From the NCBI GenBank assembly GCA_008632985.1, contig QPGO01000014.1:1-64000 (forward strand): DNA of 64,000 bases, read 5' to 3'. How positions within the stretch are numbered: position 1 is the first letter of the stretch; each line of letters begins with the position of its first letter. Below the pieces are notes generated by a model that searched no databases, was not told the origin of the DNA, and saw only the letters and a list, made by a program, of their open reading frames with translations. This document shows, in pieces, positions 1 through 54,999 of this stretch. Source of the stretch: Psammoneis japonica. Lineage: Eukaryota. A program made the translations under genes and the position numbers.

Positions 1-3000
1 AGGTTTCGAACGGCAGGATCGGGGGTAGCGGAGCGGACGTTGGACCGGTGGAGGATCTTCTGAGTCTCGTCAGATAGAATCTTGAAGGTCATCTGGTGGC
101 CGACGTGCTCCGCAATGCCAACGAAGCGTCCACGCAACTCACGGGATTCGGACGGCCAATCGGAGTCATCGAGGTGGAAGCACACGGGTTCCCACCAATG
201 AAAGCGAAGCAACGGGCTGATGTCCGGGGTGGAGCCAGTGAGAGTCTCGAGGGGCGTGCGCCAGTGGAGACGTGGGGATGCTGCATGGTTGAGTGTGAAG
301 CACACGCACATGAGCGCCAGCAGCCATGTGTGGGCGGGCAAACCAAAACGATCCATGACAGTGTTCGCCATGCGCTTCACGGTCTGGCATCGACGTTCGG
401 CAAAGTTTTGGTGTTGCTGGTGAGGCTCACTTTGCCAGCTAGAGATGAAGAGGGCGCGCAGGATCCCGAGCACTTTGTTGCTGATCTCAACTTGAGCACG
501 GTCGCCAGTGAGTTTGGATGGGGCACCACGTTCACGGATCTGATCCTCGAGTGTGTTGACAAACTCTTTGTCCGTCTCAGTGCCGCAGACGTCAGTGACG
601 GCAGACTCGGTGCCAACAAACAGTTGGGCGCTGGTGCAACCAGAGTCGACGGCCGGGGTGTCGGCACAAACGGTGTCAGTGGCGATGGGCTCGTTGCGGC
701 GGTGCACATTGAGGGCGGGGTTGGGTGATTTGTGGGCCTTGCGAAGGTGTGCACCGGCGGGCATGCGGGCGCACTGCGTGGTGCAGTCAAAAGTGCGACG
801 GACCGCATCGGCAGGTAAGAAGCCAAAGCAAGGCCGAAGAGACTCAAAGGGGGGGTCCTTGGGCTGGACAGTGCACTCCGGAGGTGGAACGTCGTCGCCC
901 TGGGGGCCAAACGCATGCAGATGACACTCGCAGAACACGTCGTCGTTCGGAATGAGGTGATCATCGAGGGCGGACGCGTGATCGGCAGACAAGGAAGCAG
1001 ACATGATGGTCTCGTTGACAACGACACGATGACGGTAGTTGCCGCATTCATCAAATGGGTTGGCAGTGGGATCGTCCTGCAGGTCAGAGATCGCGTCGCA
1101 CCACTGGTCGTCGTCAGTGACAGAGTGATCGAGGACGGAAGGGTCCCATGTGTCATCACCGGTGAGGATGACATGGGGCAGGGTGTCCCATTCGGCGTCA
1201 GTGTAAGGTCGCATGGCAACACAAGGCAGGCCAGCCTTGATGTCAATGGGGATGACACAGCCATCAGGAGTGGCAATGCGTTGCAAGCCGTTGGGCACCT
1301 TGACAGAGCGATCGTTGACATCCTGTTTGCACCATTCGAGCTGGCCGCAGGAATGGATGGTCTTGCCCTTGCCCATGCATGCGCACTGATGGAGGATGGC
1401 AATGACGGGACCACGCTGGGTCTCAACAACGGCACCAGCGGCGACAATGGGGATGTCCACCAATTGATGATCGTCAATGCCCTGAACGTCGACTTGGCGA
1501 GAGGTGCGTGCAATGACGCGAACGTCGTCGCCAGCAATGCCACCGTTGGCCCCACGATCGACTAGAGCCCCAGTGCGTGTGGAGCGATGAGCAGAGGCAG
1601 AGCAAATGACATTGTGGTTGTCAACGCGGCGGCAAGTGCGGCCGTCAAGTTCTGTGTCATCTGCAGAAGCTGGCGGGGTAGAGGAAGCGGTGGATGGCCC
1701 CGGTCGACTGGCATTGTGGGCTTGGTTAGGAGACAACAGACGTTGCAGATCACCGGGTGGCAGTGGCTTGCGCTTGGTGAGGTGCGCCAGGATGGGATCA
1801 TCCGAAGTGGCGTCCACATGTGGAGCGGAGTCACCAGAGTCAGCAGGAGTCGTGTTGGACAAGTTGACATCACCGTCGCTCCCAAGGCGTTGGTCGTGAA
1901 GGTTGGCCGTAACAGACTCATGGCAGTTGCTGGCTTGCGGGTTGCGGGGAGGTGGATGAGAATGCTCAAGGATGATCGCCTTGGAGGAATCGGGCAACGA
2001 ATCCCAGAGCCGTTGGTGGTCGGGAGGGAGACGTCTCCATTGGACACCGGTGAGGCTGGGACCGCGGGTGCAGGCAGCATTGGCCTGAAGGACGTCAATG
2101 TCGCTGTCAATGTCGTAGAACACATCGTCGGACGGTTCCTCGGAGCAGACGTCATGTGCGCACATGGCGCGTCGGGGAGCTCGAGGTGTCGTCTTGGGTT
2201 GAAACGTGCTGTCGTGCTGAGCTGCCGCGGAGAGGAGCAAGCCACAGCATTGATCGCATGTGAGGCTCTTGCCACTCTGCGTACGATGCTGATCAGCTTG
2301 GTTCTTGACAGCACGGAGTTCCTCGACAGGGTGCACGGCATTCTCGAGCATGACGCGCTTCTGTCCTTCAGAGAAGTGGTCACTGGCCGGGATGAGTGCC
2401 TCGCACTTGCGCAACTGATCTTGCCAATGAAGGATGAACCCGTGGGTCGGACCTTTCCAAGTGCCATCACCAAGACGTGCGGTGGTCAGGTGCGTGAGCA
2501 GGGTGGAGGACTCGACAGATGCGCGGGTGGAGGCAAGCGCGTGCTCAGACAAGGAGCGGCAGACGGTCTGTGCGTCAGAAGAACCCACATTTTCGCGAAT
2601 GAGAGCCTTGCCCTTGTCGGTGAGAAGGATGCGTTCGAAGATGGCAAACGTGTGCTTTTGCTGTTCAGCAAAGAGCAGTTTGTCTTCGGGGCTGGTCGGT
2701 TTGCACGACGAGTCTAGAGTGCACTCGACGTCTTGGGCACGGGCTTGTGCCACAAGTGAGGTGTGCCAAGTGTGCCACTGCTTGTCGGATTTGAGAGCTG
2801 TGAAAGCGGTGGGGTCACGCTTGATGCCTCGCTTGAAGTCCCGCACCGGGTCGCGTGCCTTGGTCGGGTTGGTGACATGTGGAGGTGCAAGGGGTGAGCT
2901 GCCGATGGACACAGAAGACATGCAGTCGGGGCTGAGGCAGCAGGCAAGGAACTCGTCATGCGTGAACAAAGAGGAGTCGTTGGCAACGTCAAGACCTTTG

Positions 3001-3254
3001 TGTGCTTTGACAATGTGCAGACTGACTGGTGCTGCCAACATGTTCTTGTGACCACGGGGCAAAGGGATTGCATCAGTGCCGTTGTCGCACTCAAGCGAGT
3101 CGATTTGGGACGGTGTGAACGTGAATGGTTCCTGATGCGAGTCCATGCCGTCTTGGGCCAAAGCCAAACGAAGAGGACTCCCAGCACCTTGGGCAAGCAC
3201 GGTTCCAACCACGTGCTCGAAACCATCGGTTTGTTGCTGACGAGTGAGAACCAT
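1..3254 (-). CDS. Copia gag-pol polyprotein, partial; frame open for about 1084 codons but hypermutated (Tyr almost absent)
   Basis: ATG at 3254 (MVLTRQQQTDGFEHVVG...) is in the same frame as the integrase motifs at 1-780. The ORF track lists nothing in this frame, consistent with no stop before the window edge. Confidence 0.85.
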   Translation of the reverse strand, partial: MVLTRQQQTDGFEHVVGTVLAQGAGSPLRLALAQDGMDSHQEPFTFTPSQIDSLECDNGTDAIPLPRGHKNMLAAPVSLHIVKAHKGLDVANDSSLFTHDEFLACCLSPDCMSSVSIGSSPLAPPHVTNPTKARDPVRDFKRGIKRDPTAFTALKSDKQWHTWHTSLVAQARAQDVECTLDSSCKPTSPEDKLLFAEQQKHTFAIFERILLTDKGKALIRENVGSSDAQTVCRSLSEHALASTRASVESSTLLTHLTTARLGDGTWKGPTHGFILHWQDQLRKCEALIPASDHFSEGQKRVMLENAVHPVEELRAVKNQADQHRTQSGKSLTCDQCCGLLLSAAAQHDSTFQPKTTPRAPRRAMCAHDVCSEEPSDDVFYDIDSDIDVLQANAACTRGPSLTGVQWRRLPPDHQRLWDSLPDSSKAIILEHSHPPPRNPQASNCHESVTANLHDQRLGSDGDVNLSNTTPADSGDSAPHVDATSDDPILAHLTKRKPLPPGDLQRLLSPNQAHNASRPGPSTASSTPPASADDTELDGRTCRRVDNHNVICSASAHRSTRTGALVDRGANGGIAGDDVRVIARTSRQVDVQGIDDHQLVDIPIVAAGAVVETQRGPVIAILHQCACMGKGKTIHSCGQLEWCKQDVNDRSVKVPNGLQRIATPDGCVIPIDIKAGLPCVAMRPYTDAEWDTLPHVILTGDDTWDPSVLDHSVTDDDQWCDAISDLQDDPTANPFDECGNYRHRVVVNETIMSASLSADHASALDDHLIPNDDVFCECHLHAFGPQGDDVPPPECTVQPKDPPFESLRPCFGFLPADAVRRTFDCTTQCARMPAGAHLRKAHKSPNPALNVHRRNEPIATDTVCADTPAVDSGCTSAQLFVGTESAVTDVCGTETDKEFVNTLEDQIRERGAPSKLTGDRAQVEISNKVLGILRALFISSWQSEPHQQHQNFAERRCQTVKRMANTVMDRFGLPAHTWLLALMCVCFTLNHAASPRLHWRTPLETLTGSTPDISPLLRFHWWEPVCFHLDDSDWPSESRELRGRFVGIAEHVGHQMTFKILSDETQKILHRSNVRSATPDPAVRN

Positions 3255-3511
3255 GGCAGACAAAAGTGGTGTCAGGACAATCAATTCTGGTTGGGAAGAG
3301 AAGGTGGACTCGAAACTTGGGTGAGAACAGACTTGACTTGAAATGGACTTGACTTGAAATCTTGAACTGTCTTAAAATCAGAAGTCGCCGGGCTTTGTCA
3401 TCCCGTTCGTTGTCAAGTGCTGAACTTCCTGTCCGGTCCGCAGAGTTGTGCCGGCACGTCCGAACCCGCAGCCAGCGGCTCTTTGGGTTGCTTGCGAGCG
3501 GAGCAGCGGGT

Positions 3512-4038
3512 TGTAAACCCCTGCAGGTGAGCTGACTGGAGGTGGACAAGACCCCCGAACCGTTCTCATTTTATGTCGGTTGGATTTCCCGATCAGGCTG
3601 GCCAGTTGACGCAGGCGTCAGGCGCTGTGGACGAACAAACAAACGTGGGAAAGCACCCTCGCCCCAACGCAGGCTGCAATCACGGCTGCTTGCTCTCACA
3701 GTCGTCCTTGTGGACCTAGCAGAACTGCAGAGCACCAGCAGTCCGGGGTAGATCAGGTACAATGGACTCGGTGTGCCTGTAGAGTGGCAGCAAAACCGCA
3801 GTCCGAAGAGTGGGTACAGGTTCTTGGCCGTGAAGATATGTATATATATATATGTCTTCAGCGACGAAGATCCTTGAATATGTAGGGTTCTTGACCGTTA
3901 ACCGATGAATAGGTATATCAAGGGATGAGGATCAAGGATAGACTTGGATATGACCGTTGAATGTATGTCTTCAGCGGTCAAAGGTAGTATAATCAATCCA
4001 GATATCCAGCGGTAAGGAGACTTGACGGTGACGTTAAC
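3512..4038 (-). repeat. Putative 5' LTR of the Copia element
   Basis: Non-coding sequence upstream of gag, ending ...GGGTTTACA on the minus strand at 3512, with a (TA)n/TATA-like tract at about 3840-3852. The partner LTR is outside the window, so the boundaries are unverified. Confidence 0.4.
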
Positions 4039-4368
4039 TTCCTGCCGATGCCCTGGTATCGAATGCGCGTAGACTTGCCGATGTATGTAGAATATATACG
4101 GAGGTCCACGTAGAATTGAAATAGCGTCGTTGGTAAATCAACGACGACGATGGCGGTTGCTCAATGGGTTGACAATGAGCAAGACTGTTAATCTGACAGA
4201 AAATGAAGGCAAATGGCAAGAATTCAAACAATAACTCCTTACTGCTGTCTAAATAGCAGATGAGTCTCCGCTCAGAGACCGTTACAGGAGCCGAAAGACG
4301 TGTAAGTCGGTATAATCGGGCTACTGTTATTATTCTTGTGAGCCTTGTGGCTCGAAAGCAAACTACAT

Positions 4369-7300
4369 CGCGCGTGAACGCGCGGAACTAAAGCACACAA
4401 AACTGTGCACGGTAAACTAAACAGCGCGCGATGCTTCGCGCGCACCTAAATCCTGTTCAAATCCTGTCAGCAAAATTCAAGAGCACAGTGCTGCAGGTGT
4501 TTTTGACATGTGGTGACAGCATGCCAGGGTGCTCATCTGGCATTGGTCAATCTTCCATGTCACCTCATTTTTGTTGATGATGTTGATTCTCATTCACAGC
4601 AAACAGAGAGTTTGTCATCAATGGCACATCATTGGCATTGCAAGTGTGCAAAGTTGAGCACAATGGCTTGCACCAGCCAAGCAAGCTGCACACAAGAATG
4701 CTGGACATGAGAAAGGCCACAGAATGGCACATGGCAAAGTGGTAAAAGATGCTTCAACACCTGCTTGTGGAATGAAGAAATGGTGCTGTTGCTGCCCCCA
4801 GAGTTGCTGCATTGCACCAGGAGTGTGGGGTTGAAAATTTCAGAGCCAAGATTCCAATCAGTGAATGAGTTGGCATTGCAAGAAGCCTCTGAAGTGCACC
4901 TTGTTGGATTGCTTGAGGATGGCAACATTTTTGTGCCATTCATGCCAAGTGTGTTGCCATCACTCCCAGAGACCTCATGTGTTGGCTCAATGCATTCATT
5001 GGTCATGGGGGGTGTTTGCAGAAGAGAGGGCTGTGGTCTGTTGATTGGAAGCAAGAAACATGCATGACCAGTTGCAATGATGTGTCATGGGTCATGGGTG
5101 CACATGTCATTTGGCTTCCAGTTCAATGATGACAAGGTGGTTTGTGTGTGTTGTGCATTGGCAGTGCTTTCTTTGCAATGTTGCACAATGGTGTCTTGCT
5201 TGTGATGTGTTGTCTCATGTGGCATTGCACACAAAACTCTGTTTTGGGATGTTGATGAGCAATGTGCAATGTCTTGCATCTGTGTTTGACAGAGCGATGA
5301 ATTCATGCAAATGCAACCACAGCACAGCACTGACCTTGTTCATTTGCAACCTGCATGATGACCACAGAGTCTTTCAGCCTCTCTCATGCCATCACACCTG
5401 CCACAAACATTCATGTGTGGGCAGCATTGCCACAGCATGAGAAAGGACACTCAATGTCAGCAGACAAGAAGCCCCACATGCATGCATGCACACTTGACAA
5501 AAGCAAGCAACTCAACCTTTCATCAACAACTCAGACACCAACAAATGTCATTGAATTTGATGCTTCACAATGACCCCAAGGCCGCCAAACAACATGGACG
5601 TTCTTTTTCTTGTTGTTTGCCACCACCAAGTCAGAAAACACAAGAAGATGGAAAGAAACTGCTGCAAGATGAGAGGCAACTTGGCAACCAGAAAAAGCTG
5701 CAGCCCTTTTTTCTTTGATGCAGCCTCCAGCTTCTTCCAGCTGCTCCGCTCAGAGTGCAAGCTGTTGCAAAATCCAGCCCTCCACAATCCTTGACAGGAT
5801 GTGGCACTCCACTTGTTGCTGCCACACAAGTGCAGCACATGTGTTTGTGTGGCTTGCAAAAAAATGTGGAAACATGGTGAGTGAAAATGCTGAGTTTGGC
5901 TGCTGTTGTTTGGGGCTGTCAAAAACAATGAAAGAGGAGCTGTCACAAAATGCAATGCAGCCAGTGTTCAAGAGGGCAAACTGGCTGGTGCAAAGAAGCC
6001 TTGCCCAAACAAGCACAAATTCTTCTGTTTCCTTGGTGTTGGAAATGGCTCTGCCTGAACTCAGCTGCACAGCCACATGCTGCCTGCAATGAGTGGCTCC
6101 TCTCAAGTTCAAGAAAAGGAAACAGAGGAAAGACAGTTCATTGACTTGACATGAAGTTCATTGTGACATCTCTGTTCATGATGCAGCGGGGTCATTCTCC
6201 ACCAAAGACAAAACTTGCCAGGAAGGAGCGACAAGAAGAAACATGATGTTGTTTGGAAACCTGTTTGTGGCAGCCAGCAGGCATTGTCCTGCACAAATGT
6301 GCACATTGCCAATCTCTTTCCTGATGCAGGGGGAGGAAGCAGCAGCCTGCAATGGCAACAGCAGTGCTAGCATGCTGTGCCACAAAGTCCAACTTGGGTG
6401 CAAGCATTGTGTTCAGAGTTTCCCACCAGCTTGTTCTCTTTGGCTGTCATTTCAAAGAGGTCTGCAATCACAGCCCATGGGTTCTTGCCCAATTTTGAAA
6501 ATTTGAAACTGATTTAACCAACTTTCTGCACTCACAATTGCACCTTCCATCTGGGAGTTGCTTGCAGCACCAACCACAGCTTTTGATGCAGTGAAGATCA
6601 CCACAGTGCCCCACAATGGCACCTCCCTGTTCTTGCCTCTGTTTTGGCCACACAACAGACATGTGCAAAGGAGCCAAAAATTATGGGAGGGTTTAAAGCT
6701 CCTCCTGAAAATGGAGATGCCTTGTTGCTTCAATCATTTTCTCAAAGCATTTCTTGGGTGTGTGTTTTCCTTGCCACAGGGGCCATTGGCAGGTGCTTCT
6801 TGGGGCTTCATCATCTGGCAAAAGCACCACAGCAGCTGCAGGGTCAGACCTCACACATCCCATGTTGCGAGCACAGCAGTCTTTGAGATTGAAAGGGGAA
6901 AATGGGCAAGTCAACAAAAAACAAGCTCTTTGTTCCTCAGCAGATGAGTTTTTGATGCTTTGCCACAAGAAGCTTTCCCCTCAGAGTCCTCGTCATTGTC
7001 CTGCCTTGTTGTTGTTGCCACCACAGCTGTGCTCCTTGGGAGGCAAGAGACTGATCCCTCTCACAGCCACATTTGTCACCAGCATGGCCACTGTGTGATG
7101 TGTCATCATCTCACTGTTAAATTGTCAAAGTCTTTCATCAACATCATTTGTGACATTTTTAGATTGTTGGCTGCATTCTCAAGATTCAAAACATCCCTCA
7201 TCTCACAAAGTCAGTCATTGATGTCTCTCTTCAGTTTGCAGCCATGCTGGTTTCTCCATGGAGAACACTTTCAACACCATCTGCTGTTGCACTGCAACCT

Positions 7301-8320
7301 TGAGTTGCAGCTCTCTCATTGTAGCTCTCTCATCAACACAAGCTGTTCCACAAAATCTTGGCTGGTGCGAGCCCCAGCCGGTGCTGCGTGGCACTCATTC
7401 TGCCACCAGAAAAGCACTGTCAGTTGGTCCACTGAAGCTTCCATCTGCTGCCAATGTTGATTCATTCATTTCAACCAAATTGCCATGTTGTCTCTCATTC
7501 TGAATGACATCCCCCATTGGTGTCAGACAATGCTGCACCGACACCCCCCTTCCGCTGCCATTCCTCGTTGACAAGCTGGTGCCAGCACTTGCACGTGCCA
7601 AGGAGCCAACCTTTGATCCCCAACACACTCCAGTTTGAAATGTCATTGCCAGATCATTTCAAACCAAACCCAGGCTGAGTTCCTTTGACTCTCTGAGTCC
7701 CCTGTCCATCACTGACTGTCACTCAAGTGATGCCACATTGCAGGATGCTCTTGTTGCGCTGTTGATCATCAAGCTTTGCTTGGCATGTGGGTCCACAAGT
7801 TGTTGACTCAAGAGCATCTCTGTTGGTCCATTCTTGAGTTTGTTGCATGCATCAGGCACTGCAGCAGCTACAGCAAGTCATCCTTTCAAGTCTCTGCCCC
7901 ATGAACACACGCCTGTTGCTCCCACACAACTCCCCCCCCTTCACCAGCTCTGTTTTCCAAGATCCGGCATGAGTCCAGCACCATTCTCTGCAGCTCTGCC
8001 ATTTGAAGCATGACTGTCTACAGCACCACTGACCATGGGTCCACCACCTCAGCCACTGCCCCTGTGTGGCGGACCTCGTCAAACACTGGCTTTTCTTTCG
8101 ACACTGCGACTCTCCCGCTCCTCTTCTCACTGGCCTCTTCATTGTGTCTTTTGTTGTCTCACATGTGTTTTGCGCTGTGTTTCCATGATGACCAGATGAT
8201 GCACTCCATGGCACAAGCACCAGCAACAGTGAGGATAACAGCTCCAAACAGGTGCAGTGGTTGCAGACCGAAAGTCTTCCATCAAAATTCAAACAACGAA
8301 AAACCCAACACACACGATGG
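4369..8320. mobile_element. Degenerate TpA- and CpG-depleted repeat block, unclassified (possible Helitron-like end at left)
   Basis: About 11 TpA in 4490-8320 by hand count and very few CpG; two GC-rich hairpins at 4369-4384 and 4424-4443; contains a histone H3 relic. Confidence 0.55.
4663..5006 (+). pseudogene. Histone H3-like pseudogene (divergent tail, internal deletion, frameshifts)
   Basis: MACT..KQAAHKNAG; GMKKWCCCCP.VAALHQ; EPRFQSVNELALQEASEVHLVGLLEDGN; CAIHAKCVAITPRDLM.LAQCIH are colinear with H3 [73 protein letters not shown]. Confidence 0.85.
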
Positions 8321-26363: not shown

Positions 26364-26954
26364 TCGTCCTGGCAAGCACTGAAGTTGAGCCAGAGAAAGT
26401 GAGACTTCTGTCGTCGACAAACAAAAAGATTTCCAGATTTGTGGGCGATCCCCGGTCAGCGATTTCACCGATTTTGAATTCGCCCGTTGCTGTCACACTG
26501 ACCCAAAGACAGCTAAATTTGTTTAAATTTTTCGAATTAGAGAAGATTTCTTCCAATGTAATGTTCGGATGAGAAGGTGTATATGAATGATAACAGCTGA
26601 TACTCAAGAGTGTCACATAATGAAACATATATACAGTTTGTATCGCTTATTCAAAGATNTCGTCCTGGCAAGCACTGAAGTTGAGCCAGAGAAAGTGAGA
26701 CTTTTGTCGTCGACAAACAAAAAGATTTCCAGATTTGTGGGCGATCCCCGGTCAGCGATTTCACCGATTTTGAATTCGCCCGTTGCTGTCACACTGACCC
26801 AAAGACAGCTAAATTTGTTTAAATTTTTCGAATTAGAGAAGATTTCTTCCAATGTAATGTTCGGATGAGAAGGTGTATATGAATGATAACAGCTTATACT
26901 CAAGAGTGTCACATAATGAAACATATATACAGTTTGTATCGCTTATTCAAAGAT
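26364..26954. repeat. 295-bp direct duplication separated by a single N (probable assembly join)
   Basis: 26364-26658 and 26660-26954 are identical except for two substitutions; N at 26659. Confidence 0.9.
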
Positions 26955-29349: not shown

Positions 29350-32300
29350 ATTGTGAAACAAACGAAAATGTGAAAATGTGAACAAGAACAAAACAAGTGG
29401 GTTTAGACTCTTGTTTCGGGAGCAGTGCCATGCACGCCAGTCTAACTGGTGTGGTATCCCACCACAACCTGTGTGCAACCATTCCAAAAGAGACAAGCAC
29501 AGTTTGTGTCTGTGCAATGCACTGCCATGCCGGTTGAGACAGCACTGGTGTGTGCATGAGCGAGGGGGCAAAATGGGGGCAGATCGCTGCTTGTTGCTCA
29601 TCATTGTGTTCTTGTTTTGGTGGAATCTTCTACTCAGATTGTGCACTGGTTTTTGCAGCATTTTGCAATGAGCAAGAGAATGTTCATAAATTGAAATGGT
29701 TCAAAGAAAATGTGGTTTTTTCTGCCCACCACCTGCCGCCGCGTGTGGACACACGACACACCGACATGGGCACACACATGCAACATCAGCATGCCCAAGA
29801 CAGCAGATGCAGTGGTCACCAGCGAACTGGAAACAACCTGTGTGCACATGTGTGGGCAAAATGGATGCTCTTTCTGTGGCTTTTGTCAAGCCAACAAAAG
29901 AGCATAAAATGTTTTTTTGGGGGGTGCAGCGGTCACCTGCGAACTGGAAGCACACTGTGTGCACATGTGTTGCAAAAAGGATGCTCTTTCTGTGGCTTTT
30001 GTCAAGCAAACAACAGAGCATGAAATGTTTCTTTGGGGCACAGTGCTTGAACACCACCCCCCAGAGAGAGGCGTGTGCCATGAGCAGCTTTTCTGCAATC
30101 AGCAACGCGCATCAGGTCCAACAAGCACAATCTCTTGGTGGTGGGTGGCAACAGAGGGAAGCTTCTGCAACACAACAAGGGCAAGTGTGTGGCTGTGTCT
30201 TGTTTGATGCCAGCACATCAGCAGCAGCCACCATTGTGCAAGGTGCACCAGCACTTTGCACCTCATGACTTCTTGCCACACATCTCACGCAGTTGATTTG
30301 TGGGATGCTGCTGCAGCACATGCAAGAAGGGCAGCAGAAGAAAGAATGACTTTGGCAAAGCTGTGCTCCAAAACATTTTAAGGAAGAAAGGTTTGGCAAA
30401 AAAGTGGTGATGACAAATTGAAGGTCAAACACTCCAAAGCAGCTTTGTTGCTTTTCAACATCAACAAGAACTCCAGCTCAACTCCACACCCACTGATGCA
30501 CTTTGTTTGTGGCATGTTGCAGAACATGCAAGGAGGAGATCAGCAGAATGATGAATCAGCCAAGCAAAACGTTGCTCCAAAACACTTTGAGGAAGAGCAG
30601 ATCAGCACAAAGCAGCCAATGTTCCATGTGGCTTCATTTTTTTATGTCGACAGCTCCAGCGCAACTCTGCTCATCATTGACTTCCAGTCAATGGCCCAAC
30701 ACTCAGTCTAAAACCACCTGCACTCAGCAGCACAGATCCTGCTGCCTCAAGATCTAAATTCAGCAATGGATTTGAAAAGCAGTTGCAAAGATTGCTGTTG
30801 ACAACAACATCTGCAACACTGTTTCTGAGTGTTGGCACCTTTGGCTGAGAAACATTTTCATTGTGCGAGTTGTCTTTTCACTTGTTGCTTTACATGTGCA
30901 AACTTCTTCATTCACAAACAAAAAGTGCTGCTCCTCCACAAGCTCATCTTGGTGTGCTGGGTCTGCACTGCATGGTGTGCGCAGCTTTGCACACCCACCA
31001 CATGGTCTTCCTTTGCTTGGGTGCATGACCTTGTGACACGCAGGTTCAATTTTGTGCAGTCATGCCAAGCAGAGTGCACCTGCTCAGCAAAATGTCTGTG
31101 CAAGCTGCACAGTGCACATTTTTGTGCCTTCCAACCTTTGCCTCTGACAGGTTGCATCACAGAACACATGTTGGCATTTGCTGCCACTTGTCAGCACAGT
31201 TGCACGTGCTGCAGTCTGCCCTTGGTTTGTTTCTGGCAAGCACAGCAACGCCAGACAAGTGAACACGACACAGCCATGGTGCTGCACTCCATCATCTTCT
31301 TGAAACTCTAGAGCAGTGCAGACATTGTGCCAACAACCCAAGAATCCTCAGACAGCACCACTTGTCACAAGCACAGACTCACTCACCAGCTTTGGAGAGG
31401 CAAAAAAGAAAAATGCTCATGGTTGCAAAAGGTCAGTGAGTGATTGCCTGTTTTGCAGCTGTTGTGAAAGAAAATGTGAGCCAAGGGTTTGGCTCAAAAA
31501 AGTGCACTCATCAAAGTTGCCAAAACCAAACATTTTTCAGTGCTTGAAACTGCCCCTGGTGTCCCAAAACAAGTGGGCAGATGGAAACTGGGGGGGGGGT
31601 GCTGGTGGGTGAACATCATTGGCACCCAGCCATTTGAAATTTGTGGTCAGATGTGAACTCTTCAAAGTCACAGAGCTTGGCCAAAGACAGGCAAGCATGA
31701 AAATGACAGCAGGAACCAGCATTTGAACAACCATGCTGCCTCAAGTTGTCCCCCAACCTCTTGTTGAACAAGTTGACAGATTGGGCATCACTGCTTGGCA
31801 AGTCTTGGGGCACAATTGCACAAACATTAAAATTCTTGGCTCATGCCAAAACAAAAACATCCAAAAAATTTTGAAGAACAAAAGTGACAAACAAACAACA
31901 AGTTTAGGATCATGTTTCTAGAGCAGTGCCGCACCAGCCCAACTGGTGCTGTGTCCCATCACAACCTGTGTGCAGCCACTCCAGAAGAGACAAGCATTGT
32001 TTTTTGTCCCTGAGCACTGTCGTGATGGTCAAGAAAAGTGCTGCACAGTGTGAAGCATGCAAAGTGAAACACATGGCTCACCATGATGGTCATTGTTTGT
32101 CATGAGGGTCTTTGTTTTGGTTGGATCTTCCTCTCCTCAGACTGTGCATTGGTTTTTGGCACTTTAAATGAACACAAGAGAAGGCCTGCAAAATTGCAAC
32201 AATGTCCAAGCAAGAAGAGGTGGCTTTGTCTGCTCCCACCCATGAAAACACACAAAATGTTCATGTGCCTGAGACAGCTGGTGCAACTGCCAATGGCAAA

Positions 32301-35300
32301 CTGGTGGCACACTGTGAGTGTGTGCACAGGCACAAGGGATGTTCCTGTGACTTTTGTCAAGCCAACAACAAAGCTGCAAAGCCCTGGCAATGTGCTTGAA
32401 GAAGTGCAAAGGGTGTCATTTCCAGAGGGCATGTGATGTGGTGTGGAAAAGGTGAGAGCAACAAAGCCTTCAGCCAAAACAGAGTCTTGGCAAAAGCCTT
32501 GCAACAACTTTGTTTGGCAGTTGTGGCTGGCTGTGTCAGAAATGCAGTGATTTGGCATGCTCTTTCACTTGATGCCTCTTGTTTTTTCCCAACAATTGTG
32601 CTCTCCTTTCCTGACAATTGTGCAAACCAAACAAATGTTGTGGTTGACTTGTTTTGCAATTTTGACTGCTTGTTGTGTTGTTTTTCTGATGTTTTAAAGC
32701 TGAAGAACTTGGTTTTAATCCTCCTCCCCACTTGCTGCATGTGTGCACACTCCTGCTCCCACTGGTCCTTCCCTGGCCAACTTGCTGCCACACATCAATT
32801 CAACATGTCTTGCATTGTTTCACACTCCCCCCCCCCCAGAATTGTGCACCACCCCAGCCTGTGGCATTTTTGGTGCTCCTGTTGTGTGAATGAATCTCCA
32901 CTCACTTCATGATGGCACACCCTCTCCTCAAACACAGAAAATTGAAGAGTGTGCACCACTGTGTTTCGCGTGTCTCCCACTTGCTGTTTCTAATCAACAA
33001 CAGACTGTGGGGCAGTGGCTGACATCTTGTGTGCCTCTTTGTCCAACAAGGTCAACCCCAACCCCTTGTTGTGCTTGACAACAAGAGCATTGATTTTGAT
33101 GACACAGAAAACCCCACCATGGAGTTGTTTGGGCCAAAACTGAGCAAGATTGCAGCTGGAATGCACACCTCCAAAAAGCAGTTCATGGAGCAAACAGATT
33201 GGGCACCCTCTCTCTAGAATTCCTCATGCTTCCTTTCCTTTGCCACAAGCCCAAGCTTCGCTGCATTCCATGAGTTGCCAAAGTCATTCACACCAACAGC
33301 ATTGTGAGGAAATCTCTCTGCCATCCTGACATGTGGTCCTGCATCATGACCCATGTTTGGGGAATGAAGAAATCTCAGAGCGTGAAAGGCAAACATGTTC
33401 TTTGCTGTCAACAGACAGAGGAAGCTCTCAAGCACTCTTCAGCACCAGGCAAAATGAGGAAGCAGAAGGAGCATCATTGTGATCTCTGCTGCAATGAGCG
33501 ATGTCAATTTGATGGTGGAGTTTGTGTGCCAGATTGTCGCTGGTGATGACCTCAATGATCTGGTCACTGGCAAGTCTTGTTTTCATCATTTAAAATGCTC
33601 CAGTCTCCTCACCTTGATTGATGACTGAGCACATGACCTTTGCACTGGTGTTTGATTTGTTGCTGGGGCAATTGTCAAGCATCACATCCATTGCAAGAAG
33701 CAGAAAGACACAAGCTGTTGGTTCTTGCAGCTTTTTTGGAGGGTTGCCACCCAGGTGGAGTGGCACACATTTGCTGTCCCCAATGGCTTTTTTGTCATTT
33801 GTGATTTGAGCAAAGTTGGAGCAGAGGCTGATGTTGTGAAGGCATTGATCACTGACCACTTGCACATCACAAAGGATCAGGCAGGTGATGAAGGGTGGCA
33901 ACACAAAATCCCATTGAGACATTGAGAGTCACGCAAAGCAAAAGAAAATTTGATGTTGCAGCAAGAATTTGGCAAACAGCATTGTCCCAAAGAGCAGCCC
34001 AGCATCCATCCCAGGGTGCAGCAAGCACCTTGCAGTGCTTGTTGTTGCAGAGCAGTGTGCAGTCAAAAGGCTGGCAACTTGGAAGATGAACAAAAAATGA
34101 GAGTGCAGGTCAAGAACAAATGAAGAGTTGGAAGGCAGTGTGCAGACAATGGCACCTGTTTGTGTTGCAAATGCCTTCTTTGAATGTCCCTTGGAAGGAG
34201 GCCAAGACATTGTTTGGCTCTGAGCCAGGGCCTCCCACAACAGTTGGCAACATTTCATTGGCAAGGGAGGCATGCCGCACCCTTGCCTTCAACATTCCCA
34301 CTTTGTCAGATTTGCTCATCAGGGCTCAAACTTGTGTGTCCTCAAATTGTGCCCCTTGCTGCCAGACAAATTGTGCCCCTTGCTGCCAGACTTCTTCTGT
34401 GAAGGGCCTGGCTCTTGATTCCCCAACTCAGAGCCCTGATGACATGTTGTGGCTGGATGCACCAAAATTCTGTCAATGCTTTGACCCATCTAAATGTCAC
34501 CCTGCTGCCACCTGTGACAAAGTTGCTGCTCATTTCTGCACCTGCACATCATCAGCAGCCAACTTCTTCCCGGCCAACAACTTGGAACAAGCTGGCATGA
34601 GTTTGCCAACAAAGCTCTGACTGGAAATCCTTCAAAGGCACCCCATGTCCAAGTGGATTGCCCTCATGCTCCAGATCATCACTCAGATGTGCTGTTCATG
34701 GCCCAACAAGGAAATGCAGTCTGCAACACACACTTTGGTGTGGTCTCTGTGTTTGTGTGCTGACTGATGTTGCTTCTTTTCACTTTTTGTTGAAGTGCAA
34801 GTCCAATCTGAAGCATGAGGACAGAGCCGATGCTGTGGCACCTGGGTCAAAAAGGAGAATTGGGTTTTTGGGTTCACCAGACAGAAGTGTCAGCAGCAAA
34901 AGGAGCCAGGCTCCACCAAATCTACAAAGCCCAGGTGTGTGGTTCTCTAGATGTTTTCAACTCCAACACAAACTTTGACAACAACAAGTTGGCTAAGATG
35001 AAAGCCATGGTGGCAGACATTGTGGACTCCACTCAGCTTTGCAAGCACAAGGCAGAGCTCAAGAAGATGAGCAACCTGCCATCCTTCAACTGGTCAGCAC
35101 TTTGATGCAAGGGGCAGTGAGGTGTTGGCTGATGAGTTGCACTGCCTCTGCTGCAAACACAAGGATTGCATGATGCAGGGCTTGTGCACATCTCACATTG
35201 TCAATCCTGTGTGGGTTTCCATGATGATGGCAACTGCAGCCAGCAGCAATGCAGGAAGACTGTGGTGGTTGTTTCTTTCTCACACAGACATGTCTGGTGA

Positions 35301-38300
35301 GATTTGACATTTCAAAATGTTTTGCAACAGGAGGAAGGCAACTGGCAATGGGCAGCTGCTGCAATGACTTCTTGTTTGAGATGCAACCAATGCTCACATG
35401 CATCCATTGCAGCTGAGCTCAGCTTGACTGTGCACTGCAAGACCCAGACCCAGAGCATGGCAGCTCCTGCTCCCATCTGGGTGTTGGACTCAAGCTCCCC
35501 ACAAAGACCTCCAAGCATTTCTTGCTTGTTGTCAGATGACAGTCATCTGTGAGTGTCTGGCTGCAAAAGCAAATGCAGGTGACAGCGGCAAATCTGGAGT
35601 TCCTCTGGTGACACAGATTGCCTCAAGCTCCTGGCTTGCCCAGCAAGAAGAGAGACACTCATCTCTTTGCACCAGCCACAGTCCTTCACTGCTTCAAGGG
35701 AACAGTCCACAGATCTGGGCCTGACCCAAAACATGTCATGCATCTTGCATCTCACAATTTTGGCGGGTTGTCTTGCTCTGGACACCACCATTTCTGCTGC
35801 ATTGGCAACAAGCACTTGCCCAATTTTCATGTTGTCTGCCTGTGGGCTGTGTGTGGGTCATTTGCCATGCAACAAAATGGACTCATGTGTTGTGTGACAC
35901 TGCAATGAAGTGGCACCCTCATGTTGCAGTGTGCAAATTGTGGCTGCAACCACACAAGAAACAAGACACAAAAATGAAACAAAGGCAGTGTGCATTTGGC
36001 CCACTGCACAAATGAAAACTTTTGCAGGTGACAATGACTGTGCCAGCAGCAGTTGGCCAATTTGCACATTTGCTCATGAGCAACTCATTGCAGTGTGCAG
36101 CACATCTGCAGGAAGCAAAGCACCAGTCAACTGCTTGCTCACCTCTGTTGAATTTCACCAAAAGTTTAGAGTGGCCAAATGGCTTGAATTTGTGAAATGG
36201 CAGGCTGGGTGAAACAGGGGCAGCACCAGAGCTTGCCACAAGACAAAATGTTGTGCCACCATTTTAGCTGAAGCCTGTCATGGTCAAAGAAGCAAGGAAG
36301 AAGAGAAGAACAACAGTGCATCTGCCAACCAGCAGCCAACCAGCCCCAGGGTGGTGGCAGCATTGCAACAGCAGCAGGAGGAAGTGTGCAGGGCACCAGT
36401 CTCTCAAGAGAGACATTGAAGAGGCAGCTCACAAAGATCTGTTTCCAAAAGCAAAATTCAACAGGTTCAGCCAGTGGTGGAAAGGTGTCATGGCTGGTGC
36501 ACAAGAACACAGCTGGTGGAAACTTCAGCAAGTGAAACTCCTGGACAGAAATGTGGGGAGATTGGGCAAAACAGCATGCAATGAACACCACATCAGTGCA
36601 AAAAGCAACACTGCTGCACAGTCAACAATGAAGAATGTAATGAGCAGCAAGTGACAAGGAAAACACAATCCAAAAACAGATTGAAGAAATTGCTGCTGGC
36701 CCTGCTGTCATTTTCACAAGTTGCGCCAACAGCAGAAAGAGCCAAGGAGATGCTGGGGCAAAAGCAGGGTGATTGTGACCTCTCAAAGAAAGGTGGCAAT
36801 GAAGGAAGAAGAAGTGGAAAGAAAAAGGCTGTGACTGACAGACCACCATTTGTGGCAACCTGGGAAAACTTGGCTGTGGAAGCCATTGTTGAGGAAAAAC
36901 AGAGTGACAAGGAGGCACACACATGGTTTTGTGACAATGCCCTTGAGTTTTCCAAGAGCACAATGGTTTGAAGAAAGATGGAGTTGGGAAACAGCAAGGC
37001 TGCAGAGCTGACTGCAGCAAGCAATGAGGCTCTGGGCTCTGGGGCTGTCAATCTTGGAGAACTGCAGGAGAAGATTTGGGAGCAGCACAAGATGGCAATG
37101 AAGAAGAGGGAGATTTAACAGGGAGGCAACAAAAAGGAGAACAGCAATGAAGACAAGAACAACCCCCGGAGCCTGTCTGGCTGCACCAAAAACAACACAT
37201 GGGGAGATGAAGGAACAGAGTGGCTCAACAAACTGTGCAACAAGGCAAGGAGGACAGGGCCTGTGATGTCAGCACACAGTTTGACACATGGTTTTGCAGC
37301 AACAACAAGAAGGAACAAGGCAAAAAGAAATCCAGGAGTGGGACAACCAGGAAGCAACCAGAGCAGAAAGCTGTGAAAGCACAAGCAATGCTTGAGCTGT
37401 CAAGCAACAACAAGGATGACAAGGAAGAGAAAGAACACAACAAAACAAGGAATGAAGAAGACAGCTCAAGCAAAGACAGCAAGAGGAACAAATGTCTGTC
37501 CCTGCAGGTGGTCCAGCAAAGGAGTCACAGCTCTTGGCATCAATGCCCCCAATCGCAACAACCACAGCTGGCAACCAGCACTGCAGCAAATGAGCAGTGG
37601 TTGGCAATTGAGTGTGTGTTGTTCAAAATTACAGTTGAGAGCAGAAAGAACTTGGACAACAAAGATGCTTTTGTTTGTTGTGTTTTGCAGGGACAGCTGG
37701 TGGGTGATTTCACAACAATGACACAAAGGGTGGATTTCTCACAGTGAAAGATTTTTCTCATGGGCTGCCCATGAAGGGGGTTTGGATCCCACAGCAAAAA
37801 ATTGTCATCTGTGCAGTCAACAAAAATCACATTCTGCACAACTGGCTGTGTGCCACAGGTTAAAAAGTGAGCCCACAAAAAGGATGAAATTTGCCATGAG
37901 ACAGGCTACCCAAAGCACTGCAAAATGCATGCTCTGATGTCCAAATTGGGTGCGCTGCTGCTGTTGGAGAGTTGCGCATGTGCCTTGCCTTGAGAGCTCA
38001 CTGATCACATGCTGTGTTGTTCAGCAGCACCAGTTGCTGGCCTGGGGGCTTTGTTCAGGAGCAAGCAGGCAACATGATTTTTTTCGTGAGGTGGTTTTCC
38101 ATGAGCTTGTTGGCCACTTCTAACATCAGGTGTGTTTTGATTTTGGGAACTTTTTTCACAGCATGTTTGGTGCTCATGGGCAAGAAACTACAGCTGAAGA
38201 AATGCGTTTCTGAGAGTCTGATTTTTGCAAAACATCATGCAAAAATTCTGACAAAAATGAAGCCAAGGAGCACTTGTGGGGTCATCCCCAATTGCAGGCT

Positions 38301-40780
38301 GCTGCTGCAAAAGCACATGTCCACAAAAGGCATGAGCATGCTGCAACTTTTGCAAAGTTGCTGCATTGGGCCCAAGCACGAGATTTGTGATTTGCTGGTG
38401 GGTGGCAAGAGAGAGAAGCTTCTGTTGCACAACAAGGGCAAGCAGCATGTGTGACTGTGCCTTGTTCAAAGCCAGCATGTTGGCAGCTGTTGTTGCACAA
38501 AGTGTGCACCAGCACTCTGCATCTTGTCATGACTTGTTGTCACATCTCATGCATTTGATTTTTGCGTGGGGTGCTGCAGCATGATGATGCAAGGGAAGCA
38601 AAAGAAAGAATGAGCTGGGCAAAGCTCTGCTCTGAAACACTTCAAGGAAAAGAGAGGTTCAGCAAAAAAGTGGAGGCAACAGCTTTGTTCTTGCTTTTTA
38701 ATGTCAACAAATCCAGCTCAGCTTTGCACCCATCATTTTGCTCTGCCAGTCATTTGAGATTTGGTCTAAAAAACTGCTTGCCTCACAGAGCAAGGATCTG
38801 CCCTTGGTTTCTTTCTGAACAGAGCAATGCAGCAGTTTTGTGGCTGCATGACAGCCAAGGCTCTGCAGCAGATATGACCAGGGTGCAACATTTGGTTTCC
38901 AGGAAGGGCCAACAAGGCAGCAGCAGGAATGTCATGCCAACACAGCTCCCAAAAATTCCCAAAAGACACTTGTCACATGCACTCACTCCCCACCTGTGGA
39001 GAAGGAAAAACAAGCTCATGGTTGCAAAGGGGCAGAAAGTGCACACAAGGGTGGTTGCAAAATGGTGGAAAGTGCACACAAGGCAGCACCAAGCAATGGC
39101 CCACTCTGCAGCTGTCATGAAAGACACCAAGTTGGCTGGCTTGGCCCTGATGGACATGTGTCAAATGAAGCAGGGGAGCCAGGGGGGGTTGATTGAGATC
39201 ATCAGCACACCAGTTGTTTGAGGTTTGTCACAAAATGAGAGAGAATGTGAATTCAGCAAAGTTGCAGAGCTTGCCAAAAGATGGGAAAGCATCAAAACAG
39301 AAGCAGGCATCATCCTTGCTTGAGGCCCAGCCACACTCACAAAGATTGTGTGGGTGGGAGATGGCATGGCTTGGCAAGTCTTGGGATGTGCTCCACAACC
39401 AGCATTGTGCAAAGTGCAGTGACAAACTTTGTGATCATCCAGAGATGACCCAAGCACCAGCTGCATGATGGCCAGCTCACCAGCACTGCAACCTGAGCTT
39501 TCAAAGCACTGCCATTGGCCCTTCCTTCAAAGGCAGGAGTGCAGTGATGCAACAGCATTGCCACCTTTCACAGATTTTGTCATGCCATCTCTTGCTTGCA
39601 CACATCCAAAAAGTCACACCTTTTCTTGGGGTGGTTGTTTGAAACATGGGCTTGCACACAAACTGGTTGTTATTTTGAAACTCAGTGCACAGTGTCTCCT
39701 GGTTGAGGAGAGGTTGTGGAGCCTCATGAGGAGACTCACACAGGCTTGCACAATGCAAAGAATGGCAGGCAGTTGTTGGGCAGGTGGTACAGGTGGCAAG
39801 TGTGTGTGATGGTGCAGAAATGGTGCCAGAGATTTTTGTTGAAAGAAGCAACTGGCATTGCTGTCAAAAATGTGCATGAAAGGAACTTGACAAAACAGCA
39901 TGACAGCCTGCAGTGAGTTCAAAAACTTTGTGGCAGCAGCCTCTGCACAAAAAGGGCAACAAAGTGTGCCCTTGACTTGCCATCTTTTGTCATCATCTCT
40001 CCAGGACAAGAGCCAACAAGGTCTTCTTCTCATTTGAGTAGGGGAGACCATGTGCACTGCTCTGCTCCAATGGAGATCATTGCAATGGCGGCACACAAAG
40101 AAGAGAAGCCCTTCTTGTGCACAGCACACCCAGCCCGTGGCTGTGTCTCTCACAACCAAGTTTTCCGGCTTTAGAAAAAGGTCAGCCGTTTTGCATGTTG
40201 GACACAACAAGAGGCCACGTGGCTTGATTTGCCACATCTTGCAAACATCAAGATCCACAATGGAGCCACCAATCAATTCAACCTCCTGAGAGCATGGCAC
40301 CAGGCTTGCTTGAGAAAGCTCGCTGTGTGTTCTTTGGCTGGTTGGCATGGTGTGCATCATCCTGAAGAAAACAACACCAGACAAGCAGCCACAGAGAGGC
40401 ACAGAAGAAGAAATTGACTGGCTTCTTCCATCCTCTTCACCCACAAGTGCAGACATGGGAGGCAATTTGACGTCTTTTGCGGCAGTGGCTGGCTGGAGGC
40501 AGAAATGATGGTGTGATCGCTGCATGATTTTCTTGAAAGGGGCAGTCCATTTTCAACAAATCTTACATAATGTTTGGATCTCTGCGTTGCCTGCTGTTCA
40601 CCAATCCCTGTTCCCGTCGTTCTGAGCGCTCTGTCGCAGAGGGGAGCCATCGCGGATGAAAAAAATGAGGATTCCGAGTCGTGAGTGAGAGATGAATCCG
40701 CCACCAACGAAAAAGAGCGGGAGATGTGACGTGGCTCAATGCGCATTGGTCGTTTTCTCGCTCTGCCGCCGACCTCACGC
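29350..40780. mobile_element. Large degenerate TpA/CpG-depleted repeat block with internal duplications, unclassified
   Basis: About 40 TpA in 11 kb by hand count; related segments at 29421-29660/31922-32165 and 30140-30490/38397-38730; 117-bp tandem at 29809-30040; 24-bp tandem at 34343-34390. Confidence 0.65.
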
Positions 40781-53378: not shown

Positions 53379-54999
53379 GACTCTTGTGTGTGTGCATTAA
53401 ACAACCTCGCATCTGTGATGAGTGCCATTTGGTCATTGCCACATGGCTGCAGTTCCTTGGTTTTAGATTCTGGGGAGGGTCGTGGTTGCATCATTTTCCA
53501 AAAATTAGTTGGCGATGATGCATGTTTAGGTGTGGCTCTTTGAGAACAGCGCAGCATGCTCACTTGCACACATCATTGTTTTGTCGTTGCGGCAAATCAT
53601 GGCAAAGATCCCTGCCTCCTGTGATGATGAACCAAAAGCAAGTCTCAACTCAATGACAATGAACATTCAATCTGACAATGATTCAAACAAAACTGCACAA
53701 ACAGCACAGACAGAACGCAAACAACTAAAGAGGGAGACTCTTGTGTGGGTGAGGCTGCACCACAGCAATGCTCCATCTCACCAACTCTTGCAGCACCACC
53801 CAGGCTCTTTCCAGAGAGGGCATGCCAAGCCAGGGAAAGAGGAGAGGACAGGTGGACAGGGTGACAAGGAGGCATGCTGTCCAGCAGAATTTGAGATTCA
53901 GTTTTAATTTCCTCACCCTCGTTCAGGGTTTGCCCTCCTTCCCCATGAGCACAAGAAACAATTTGGTGTTGTCTTCTTAGAAATGCATCATTTTCCTCTG
54001 TTTCATGCAACAACAAAAATTCTGTGGTGCGCAAATTTTTGTTTTTAAAAGGCGCAGCATTTGAAGTCCAACTTAGAAACAAATGACAACATTTTGTCAA
54101 CAGCAAAATGCCAATTTACAGCATGCAAAGAAACCACAGTGACTTGGGCCTGTGTGCAATGTTCTCACCTTGCAGTGTGCTGTTCTCAACATTTTGTTTG
54201 GCCATTTCTTTCCAGTTGCTCAGCTTGCAAAACAGCTTTGCCTGCAATGCAATCAGCTTGTTGCCAGATTTTTGAGTTTCTGCACAGGATTCCCTGGGGC
54301 ATTTCTGTTTGAGATGACTTTTTAGGAAGCTGGCCATGACTCCACTTTCTGCATGCCAAGCCAAAGCCCCATGGAGGATTCACTTTGACCAAGCATGAGT
54401 TGTCATTGCCGAGACTGTTTCCAAGCATGCAACAACTTTGCAGTGGTCTTTTTGGGAGAAAAGCAATGCAAAACAGCTGCAATGAAGCCGCAGATGGGCA
54501 GCTGCTTCATTGAGATCTCCGCAGGTCTGTGGAGATTTTGGCCACACATGAGGGCAGTTGTGATGTCATTGACTGGCACTGCATCTGTGCACATTGTGGC
54601 CAGCTTCAGTGCATTTTTGAGTGCATGGCCTGCTTTTGACCAGTGCATTTGGCCGGCCCACAGCAGCATGGACATTCTTGGCTCTGGGAGAATGCACCAC
54701 TGCCAGAGAATTTTGCAGAGTTCTGCCATGCAACCAACTGGTGTGCTTGATGCACAGCAAATTTCTTGTGATTCAAGTGCCTTGAGGCATGGGAACAAAG
54801 AAACTGGACAAACAAAGCCAGTGCCTGTGGGTGAATCCAACACACTGTCAAGGAACAAAACAAGAAACTGTGTCTTTTTCCTTTTCTGTCACTGATGTCA
54901 TGCCATTCCCACTGGTCTCAGAACAAGATTTCACAACAGAATGGAAGCTTGCAGTTTCGGCAAGATGATTGGACTTTCTGAATTTTTTTTGCACCAGAA

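Follow-up and report, generated by a model that had tools for sequence, protein, structure and literature searches.

How can the reading frame of a retrotransposon remain open for more than a thousand codons when hardly any tyrosine codon is left in it? The question is raised by the first 64,000 nucleotides (forward strand) of contig QPGO01000014.1 (assembly GCA_008632985.1) of the diatom Psammoneis japonica, a stretch which we call the window. Judging from its sequence, the start of the window is the 5' part (long terminal repeat (LTR) and untranslated region (UTR), gag, protease, integrase) of a Copia-type LTR retrotransposon in the diatom nuclear genome. The answer towards which we lean, with moderate confidence, is that TpA in the integrated copy was mutated to TpG or CpA, on either strand and in each copy independently. 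On balance, we regard this Copia copy as dead, inactivated by a mutation process that acts on TpA.

The coding part of the element carries the following features:

3..3254, minus strand: Ty1/copia-type polyprotein open reading frame (ORF), gag-protease-integrase part, from the ORF listing, homologs and alignment of the N-terminus
396..677, minus strand: integrase catalytic core, with D870, D928 and E963 at D(35)E spacing, intact
1539..1559, minus strand: DRGANGG stretch (columns D576 to G582, nearly invariant in the family), which we take to be, probably, the protease active-site region

The minus-strand ORF at 3..3284 encodes 1094 residues if read from a TTG. Read from the ATG at 3254 it encodes 1084, and this ATG is aligned with the N-terminal start of the family consensus. 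No stop lies between the start of the ORF and the start of the window, and the frame runs off the window on the side of position 1. A sequence search yielded 415 homologs, the best 120 of which are 39–55% identical to the ORF, mostly over 81–99% of the query. Most of the homologs listed have ~1850–1900 residues and carry PF07727 (RVT_2) downstream of the aligned part; the reverse transcriptase (RT) and RNase H of the element are thus expected beyond the start of the window, where full-length homologs (81–99% of the ORF aligned) have this domain. The residues D870, D928 and E963 are invariant in the family alignment and are found on the N-terminal side of the homologs' RT region, so that integrase precedes RT. 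Since the homologs list only PF07727, the outcome of a Pfam search of the ORF (0 families, rve included) is typical of the family and not an effect of mutation. In its Copia type, diatom host, integrase-before-RT order and relatives with RVT_2, the element resembles the CoDi (Ty1-copia) elements of diatoms (PMC2806351), a likeness drawn at the level of Copia type and gene order and not of a named CoDi group; a term search of that paper returned no mention of TpA or of a dinucleotide bias. Within the window, ten homologous polyproteins revealed no further copy of the element outside 1–3300 (tblastn, E ≤ 1e-4), no LTR pair of the element, whose 3' LTR lies outside the window, came up in an exact-seed repeat search or in self-blastn, and a tRNA search made with the primer-binding site in mind returned 0 genes.

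The first-pass annotation had counted only three in-frame Tyr codons, and there are indeed exactly three, all TAC:

1035..1037, minus strand: residual Tyr TAC, residue 750 of the 1094-residue reading; most of the sister-copy depth has TGC (Cys)
1203..1205, minus strand: residual Tyr TAC, residue 694; 49 of 60 homologs have Tyr at this column
2115..2117, minus strand: residual Tyr TAC, residue 390, from the codon count

The probability of three or fewer Tyr in 1094 codons at a frequency of 3.3% is 1e-12. The ORF contains 38 Cys (3.5%) and 52 His (4.8%); in 119 of the best 120 homologs, Tyr makes up 2.9–4.6% of residues, Cys ~0.5–1.4% and His ~2.6–4.3%. The ORF was aligned with its 60 best homologs, which carry 3–4.5% Tyr, and a column was taken as conserved if no fewer than 40 homologs cover it and 70% or more of them agree (417 columns). 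Only 2 of the 21 conserved Tyr columns are kept, the others having turned into Cys (14), Phe (3) or His (2), whereas every other residue type is kept in 75–100% of its conserved columns. Non-Tyr columns together are kept at 346 of 396 (87.4%), as compared to a mean of 89.6% and a minimum of 78.9% in the homologs, whose own Tyr retention has a mean of 88.6% and a minimum of 66.7%. Nineteen of the 38 Cys stand at columns that are at least half Tyr in the homologs, and 4 more at columns with 20–50% Tyr; for the 52 His the corresponding numbers are 3 and 4. Six positions had previously been named as ancestral Tyr. Their coordinates are correct and the homologs carry Tyr in 41, 49, 55, 44, 29 (Phe in 30) and 25 of 60 cases, which bears out the assignment for four of them and leaves it plausible for the other two.

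The loss concerns TA as a dinucleotide. The ORF at 3..3284 holds 13 TA in 3282 nt, and across 1–3284 the observed/expected ratio (o/e) is 0.09 for TA, 1.60 for CA and 1.41 for TG; AT, AA and TT show no depletion (0.96–1.02), and TC stands at 1.22. CpG is abundant throughout, as had been claimed (CG o/e ~0.92), and the GC content is 59% versus a window mean of ~47%. The non-coding sequence at 3285–3716 is also poor in TA (3 TA and 28 CG; TA o/e 0.14, CG o/e 0.84), and the depletion is thus not an effect of codon usage. Nor is it a trait of the family, since 66 of 67 related metagenome loci have a TA o/e of 0.42–0.96 in the matching region.

Two relatives stand apart. Of the best 120 homologs, only P0075, a protein of 959 residues from another assembly, shares the signature: Tyr makes up 0.73% and Cys 3.0% of its residues, and its conserved Tyr columns read Cys in 11 cases, His in 2 and Tyr in 3. 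The process would therefore also act in the organism of that record. In a metagenome Copia sequence (L001:767–3514), the coding TA o/e is 0.15 and 19 of the 25 coding TA lie in Tyr codons, with a flank at a normal level (35 TA in 766 bp). Judged on sequence, this pattern looks like selective TA avoidance where removal is cheap, distinct from hypermutation.

The open frame has a simple explanation. A-to-G and T-to-C changes never turn a sense codon into TAA, TAG or TGA, and the frame of the Copia copy is therefore no sign of function. The suggestion that TpA loss was fast and came before indels and stops is supported, with one qualification: there are no frameshifts, and the non-Tyr columns are kept at the level given above, while the missing stops carry no weight, so that only the missing frameshifts argue for the youth of the copy. 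Indeed, over all six frames there are 20 TAA/TAG triplets in 1–3700, versus 136 in an equal length of genic sequence, and since TAA and TAG vanish in all frames, many long overlapping ORFs appear in this region. Overlapping ORFs of 100–390 residues without homologs occur on both strands of the TA-poor parts of the window, 1–3700 included. Gene finders would call such spurious ORFs as genes.

Further evidence comes from sister copies. They were recovered from contigs of four sequencing runs, all from one sample of one study, which is possibly the source of the assembly, and were placed on 1–4600 at a likeness of at least 88% (9283 contigs in run X1). The summed word depth of run X1 over 1–4600 is in the tens of thousands, and the element family is therefore high-copy in the sample. 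Contig joints supported by single contigs with sides of 21–35 nt were set aside. Counted by places, differences from the window copy comprise 45 A-to-G, 45 T-to-C, 37 C-to-T, 36 G-to-A and 17 transversions. Classes of event rest on 40 of the 189 difference rows, which correspond to 31 events: 9 are adjacent TG/CA swaps, 6 are sites that are TA in other copies and TG or CA in the window copy, and 2 are TA in the window copy and lost in others, which brings TA-type differences to 17 of 31. Six further sites are CG elsewhere and TG or CA here, 1 is the opposite, and 7 are others; CpG decay thus seems to have just begun in this copy. At the residual Tyr of 1035..1037, place 1036 reads C instead of T in 24367 of 29759 depth (run X1).

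The copies resolve the same ancestral TA differently. Codons 966 and 375 are Cys in the window copy and His in sister copies, codons 851 and 357 are His in the window copy and Cys in sister copies, and codons 903 and 927, Glu and Gly here, are Lys and Ser elsewhere, as in the family consensus. It follows from the alternation of Cys and His at the same codons that the copies were mutated independently, on either strand and without selection on the protein. Identical Cys or His residues shared by sister copies under purifying selection, the outcome that would have spoken against hypermutation, are therefore not what the copies show.

The same conclusion regarding orientation is reached from composition. 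C precedes codons that start with A in 171 of 226 cases (76%), versus 35–39% before other codons, and G follows codons that end in T in 147 of 270 cases (54%), versus 25–28% after others. T-to-C changes on the sense strand are seen in 2 conserved Tyr turned into His and 2 Leu turned into Pro through CCA. We also compared dinucleotides by codon phase with 25 relatives that have intact frames, and the values below are per 100 codons at the Tyr position, at codon positions 2-3 and at the codon junction, respectively:

TA: this copy 0.3, 0.4 and 0.5; mean of relatives 3.7, 3.3 and 8.0
TG: this copy 4.9, 6.1 and 13.4; mean of relatives 2.2, 4.7 and 14.2
CA: this copy 9.5, 4.3 and 15.6; mean of relatives 8.7, 6.8 and 11.0

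In total, the gains over the relatives are +8.0 for TG and +5.8 for CA per 100 codons, and are roughly balanced. TG and CA are interspersed along the element (337 runs versus 324 expected, z = +1.02), with no runs of one strand. The earlier proposal that both strands are hit, which set the process apart from ADAR-type editing of the RNA intermediate, is upheld insofar as both products are present and sister copies alternate between Cys and His; the qualification is that editing of the RNA combined with editing of the minus-strand cDNA would also yield both. Plain ADAR-type editing, which gives A-to-G on the sense strand only, is ruled out by the presence of sense T-to-C changes and by His in sister copies at Cys codons of the window copy.

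The window as a whole supplies the order of events. It contains seven TA-poor blocks with sharp edges, which cover 29,984 of the 64,000 bases (~47%). Besides the Copia copy, the parts needed here are:

4470..8201: older hypermutated block, without TA and CG, with no recognisable coding content (dinucleotide counts, 0 Pfam families)
29594..40643: largest TA- and CG-poor block, with diverged internal repeats (TA o/e 0.05, CG o/e 0.09)
52424..53377: second TA-poor block that keeps CpG (4 TA, 53 CG; o/e 0.08 and 0.78)
54197..62860: TA- and CG-poor block with a mutated host gene fragment (TA o/e 0.06, CG o/e 0.34)
54666..54958, plus strand: copy of the 5' end of a TYW2-like gene (source 49658–49938; the intact gene polarises the changes)

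The Copia copy (~0.91) and 52424–53377 (0.78) are the TA-poor blocks that keep their CG o/e. In the large blocks at 4540–8201, 29594–40643 and 54197–62860, TA o/e is 0.04–0.06, CG o/e 0.09–0.34, and GC is back to ~47–48%; 4540–8201 has 10 TA and 24 CG in 3662 nt, and 4470–4540 has 0 of either. None of the 23 one-kb bins with CG o/e below 0.5 has a TA o/e above 0.3, and 7 of the 29 TA-poor bins keep a CG o/e above 0.6. With ~90% of the expected TA lost from the Copia copy at a CG o/e of ~0.91 and with this nesting of the bins, the claim that TpA loss is independent of CpG decay and precedes it is supported. Among relatives from other sources, CpG-poor sequences with normal TA are common (e.g. 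L004, L042 and L046), and the two losses are thus separable; in this genome, TA goes first. A Pfam search of 89 ORFs from the TA-poor blocks other than the Copia copy returned 0 families.

Host genes of the window are spared. Those for DGAT, 7-dehydrocholesterol reductase, a carrier and others have a TA o/e of ~0.5–0.8; the repeats beside them are hit. The other host genes of the window are likewise ordinary eukaryotic ones. The 7-dehydrocholesterol reductase gene (41171–42358) has its best named matches, at 69–78%, nearly all in diatoms (Odontella, Pseudo-nitzschia, Cylindrotheca, Seminavis and Cyclotella), along with two matches labelled as dinoflagellate; the best match without a name reaches 83%.

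The TYW2-like fragment provides changes of known direction. In its 290 bp, 11 of 11 TA are destroyed (6 A-to-G, 3 T-to-C, 2 transversions), so that 9 of the 11 follow the transitions seen at the conserved Tyr codons of the element, and both orientations are represented. All 13 CG are destroyed as well (4 C-to-T, 9 G-to-A), and other contexts are changed at 15–24%. The strand that was changed at a TA is uncoupled from the strand changed at a neighbouring CG, which argues for two processes. In the window, the TA loss is confined to mobile DNA and repeats, with host genes left aside; one high-copy island, described below, is also spared.

Several further observations were made on these blocks. 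The repeat pair 30135–30407 / 38392–38673 differs by 11 TG/CA swaps, and another pair from an old block by 7. In the block at 29594–40643, TG and CA are mildly clustered by strand (runs test, z = -3.1), perhaps because the block is a patchwork of fragments that lie in either orientation. The TYW2-like gene is duplicated over its 5' end and upstream sequence (49658–50092), with the mutated part at 54666–54958 and 39 bp (90%) at 62865–62903, outside 54197–62860, which suggests a segmental duplication later split by insertions. The region 50000–53377 is partly depleted of TA and largely keeps CpG (50000–52423: TA o/e 0.29, CG o/e 0.80), and may be a second young target; it carries three overlapping ORFs of 270–333 residues with no convincing homologs, and for two ORFs at 51–52 kb one search gave no homolog at E ≤ 0.001 and another gave two weak matches (6e-6, 5e-4). 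Finally, 26364–26954 consists of two 295-bp copies, 99% identical and head to tail, parted by the single N of the window at 26659, which points to a join made in assembly, or to a gap that was collapsed, rather than to biology.

What process could leave such a pattern? The closest parallel comes from the chlorarachniophyte Bigelowiella natans, in which, according to a preprint by Mettrop et al. (10.64898/2026.01.13.699255), integrated nucleocytoplasmic large DNA virus and virophage DNA is hypermutated at TpA. Of the 231 mutations that two such integrated regions gained in mutation-accumulation lines, 230 are A-to-G or T-to-C, all at TpA, and the rates are ~1000-fold above background. The same source reports that TpA-depleted coding sequences are enriched in reverse-transcriptase and DDE domains, and proposes an ADAT2-like protein as the enzyme. 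Given this precedent, the random interspersion of TG and CA, their balanced totals, the intermediate states in other copies and the mutated gene fragment, we infer that the process acts in place, on integrated double-stranded DNA. It would attack either strand of the palindromic TA of the integrated copy, and TA loss would saturate before CpG decay or indels set in. The expected products would be Cys or His in place of Tyr, changes across codon junctions (Lys to Glu or Ser to Gly, for example), a rise in GC and the loss of TAA and TAG in all frames. The chemistry is probably adenine deamination to hypoxanthine, which is read as G, and by analogy with what was proposed for B. natans the process may be a host defence against repeats.

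The upstream boundary of the depleted sequence bears on this reading and involves two features:

3255..3716, minus strand: TA-depleted 5' non-coding part, made up of the 5' UTR and either the complete LTR or its R-U5 (dinucleotides, depth)
3717..4469: unmutated 753-bp island between hypermutated blocks (54 TA, 47 CG; o/e 1.02 and 1.18)

The run depth of 3255..3716 is 1.5–2 times that of the internal region, and the TA-poor sequence of the element ends between 3572 and 3717. Over the island, depth is uneven, from ~40,000 to 480,000 summed word depth (X1), versus ~3,400 just beyond 4467; the sister contigs part from the window copy at 4469, the position at which the island opens with TG on the minus strand. 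Two arrangements may be considered. Either the LTR is short (~400 bp), starting with a TG near 3700, where depth also drops, and the island is a separate, younger repeat that was not hit; or the LTR is long (~1.1 kb) and the island is its U3, in which case mutation would be limited to the transcribed part of the element. The latter is permitted by the unit lengths of the family, 7.1–8.2 kb versus a ~5.6-kb polyprotein, which allow an LTR of ~1 kb, these lengths being taken from contigs of relatives that end inside repeats or are circularly permuted. As the U3 of both LTRs is copied from RNA, a long LTR would argue strongly for in-place mutation, and it would also hint at a link to transcription.

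A number of points weigh against in-place, TA-specific mutation. In a second alignment, the conserved Tyr columns hold 16 Cys and 2 His here (p = 0.001) and 11 and 2 in P0075 (p = 0.02; combined 3e-5), an excess of Cys on the sense strand which strand-blind attack on a palindromic TA does not predict; it could possibly arise from a flanking-base preference, from a bias towards the non-template strand or from earlier selective purging of synonymous TA sites, and a trinucleotide comparison of flanking bases with 11 relatives was too noisy for a preference to be read. By simple arithmetic, a GC content of 59% is too high for TA loss alone, which would add ~5 points, and part of it is either native or due to A/T-to-G/C changes outside TA. 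Such changes are found in the TYW2-like fragment at 18 of 133 sites. The island at 3717–4469 is high-copy and yet retains a TA o/e of 1.02, from which it is clear that copy number alone does not attract the process, and if the island is U3, mutation stops inside the element. All runs, moreover, come from the single sample, possibly that of the assembly.

Some of these points would be met if mutation were coupled to retrotransposition, a live alternative that we nevertheless consider unlikely, in which an ADAT/ADAR-like enzyme edits the RNA at UpA, the minus-strand cDNA is edited by this enzyme or by a different one, and insertions are born mutated. Both the sense A-to-G excess at Tyr codons (16:2 here, 11:2 in P0075) and a depletion boundary at or inside the LTR would then be expected, as would a retroelement as the target and a pattern proper to each copy. 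This would, however, demand that ~90% of TA sites be edited in one cycle, and TG and CA should form strand patches, whereas they are randomly interspersed with gains that are roughly balanced. Sites mutated here are still TA in other copies, which suggests gradual accumulation, and the host gene fragment and blocks without a retroelement signature show the same loss. If 3717–4469 is U3, it too should have been edited, both U3 copies being derived from RNA.

Because TA is palindromic, A-to-G on one strand is T-to-C on the other, and the sequence evidence for adenine deamination fits equally an oxidation of thymine in place, by a dioxygenase of the TET/JBP type acting on T at TpA, whose products (5-hydroxymethyluracil (5hmU) or 5-formyluracil) mispair with G and lead to T-to-C. 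We think this improbable, and less probable than coupling to retrotransposition. Oxidised thymine is mutagenic. There is also a precedent in dinoflagellates, where, according to PMC11572971, 5hmU takes the place of T with a preference for TA and TC and contributes to the silencing of transposable elements. TC, however, is not depleted here (o/e 1.22), and the authors of the B. natans study favour an ADAT2-like deaminase.

That the composition is native, with a functional lineage avoiding UpA for reasons of RNA stability or codon usage and Tyr being replaced adaptively, appears very improbable. An open frame over 1084 codons with an intact D,D(35)E would suit it, and L001 (TA o/e 0.15, Tyr kept) shows that selective TA avoidance does occur within the family. 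However, of the 21 strongly conserved Tyr only 2 remain, most of the other 19 having become Cys, the open frame is expected in any case because A-to-G and T-to-C make no stops, and this explanation is refuted in the main by the Tyr loss itself, by sister copies that alternate between Cys and His at the same codons and by the depletion of the non-coding 5' region. An artefact of assembly or sequencing, such as a systematic base-calling error at TA, has a negligible chance of being correct: the stretch was seen in one sample only, but TA is at a normal level in the genes of the window (o/e ~0.5–0.8 per kb), the block boundaries are sharp and coincide with repeats, the stretch reappears in the contigs of four runs, and the changes in sister copies are of a like kind.

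TpA-directed mutation of the integrated copy can be set against three known systems. B. natans shares with the diatom case a restriction to TA, TG and CA products in both orientations, a bias towards GC and foreign or mobile DNA as target. The hosts differ, a chlorarachniophyte (Rhizaria) there and a diatom here, and so does the stage: in B. natans, mutations were observed as they arose in culture, and many TA persist in the targets (Rho 0.45), whereas here only a saturated end state is seen (o/e 0.03–0.10). The older blocks of the window have also lost CpG, on which the preprint, as far as its accessible text goes, is silent; that text likewise contains no mention of diatoms, stramenopiles or retrotransposons.

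In repeat-induced point mutation (RIP) of ascomycete fungi, the functional analogue, C becomes T, mainly at CpA, with the result that TpA is gained, GC falls and stop codons appear. In both RIP and the diatom case, context-specific transitions riddle repeated or mobile DNA copy by copy and quickly kill its coding capacity. Here, however, TpA is destroyed, GC goes up and no stops arise, which is the chemical opposite. RIP is ruled out by a TA o/e of 0.09, a CA of 1.60, a TG of 1.41 and a GC of 59%. A RID-related DNMT4, of unknown function, is present in some diatoms according to PMC9998398. Editing by ADAR or APOBEC resembles the diatom case in its deaminase-type transitions, its preference for a 5' neighbour (U before the edited A for ADAR) and its retroelement targets; the substrates of these enzymes are RNA or single-stranded cDNA, and the patterns that result are one-stranded, whereas here TG and CA are interspersed at random and a host gene fragment is hit too.

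We found no report of TpA hypermutation in diatoms in the literature covered, which left out most subscription journals and preprint supplements. The diatom case is supported as a TpA-directed hypermutation of mobile DNA that is saturated and precedes CpG loss. A wider proposal, which we put forward tentatively and hold to be somewhat short of an even chance, is that diatoms possess a DNA-level defence that erases TpA, a mirror image of RIP that would be shared with a chlorarachniophyte, old or widespread among stramenopiles, alveolates and Rhizaria (SAR), and faster than CpG decay. The proposal includes the variant in which the island is U3; together with the sense A-to-G excess, that variant would suggest that the non-template strand is attacked by an adenine deaminase which is either linked to transcription or guided by RNA.

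Dead transposon copies with full-length open frames will be annotated as intact genes, and transposable element ages derived from substitution counts, as well as landscapes of GC content, would be distorted. TpA-directed hypermutation is so far known from a single 2026 preprint on one alga, without a mechanism, and a saturated diatom example, if true, would mean that the process is not a peculiarity of one lineage. The Copia element gives a natural time series, in which TA is lost first and CpG later. As some diatoms are genetically tractable, knockouts of candidate ADAT-like or TET/JBP-like enzymes would be feasible.

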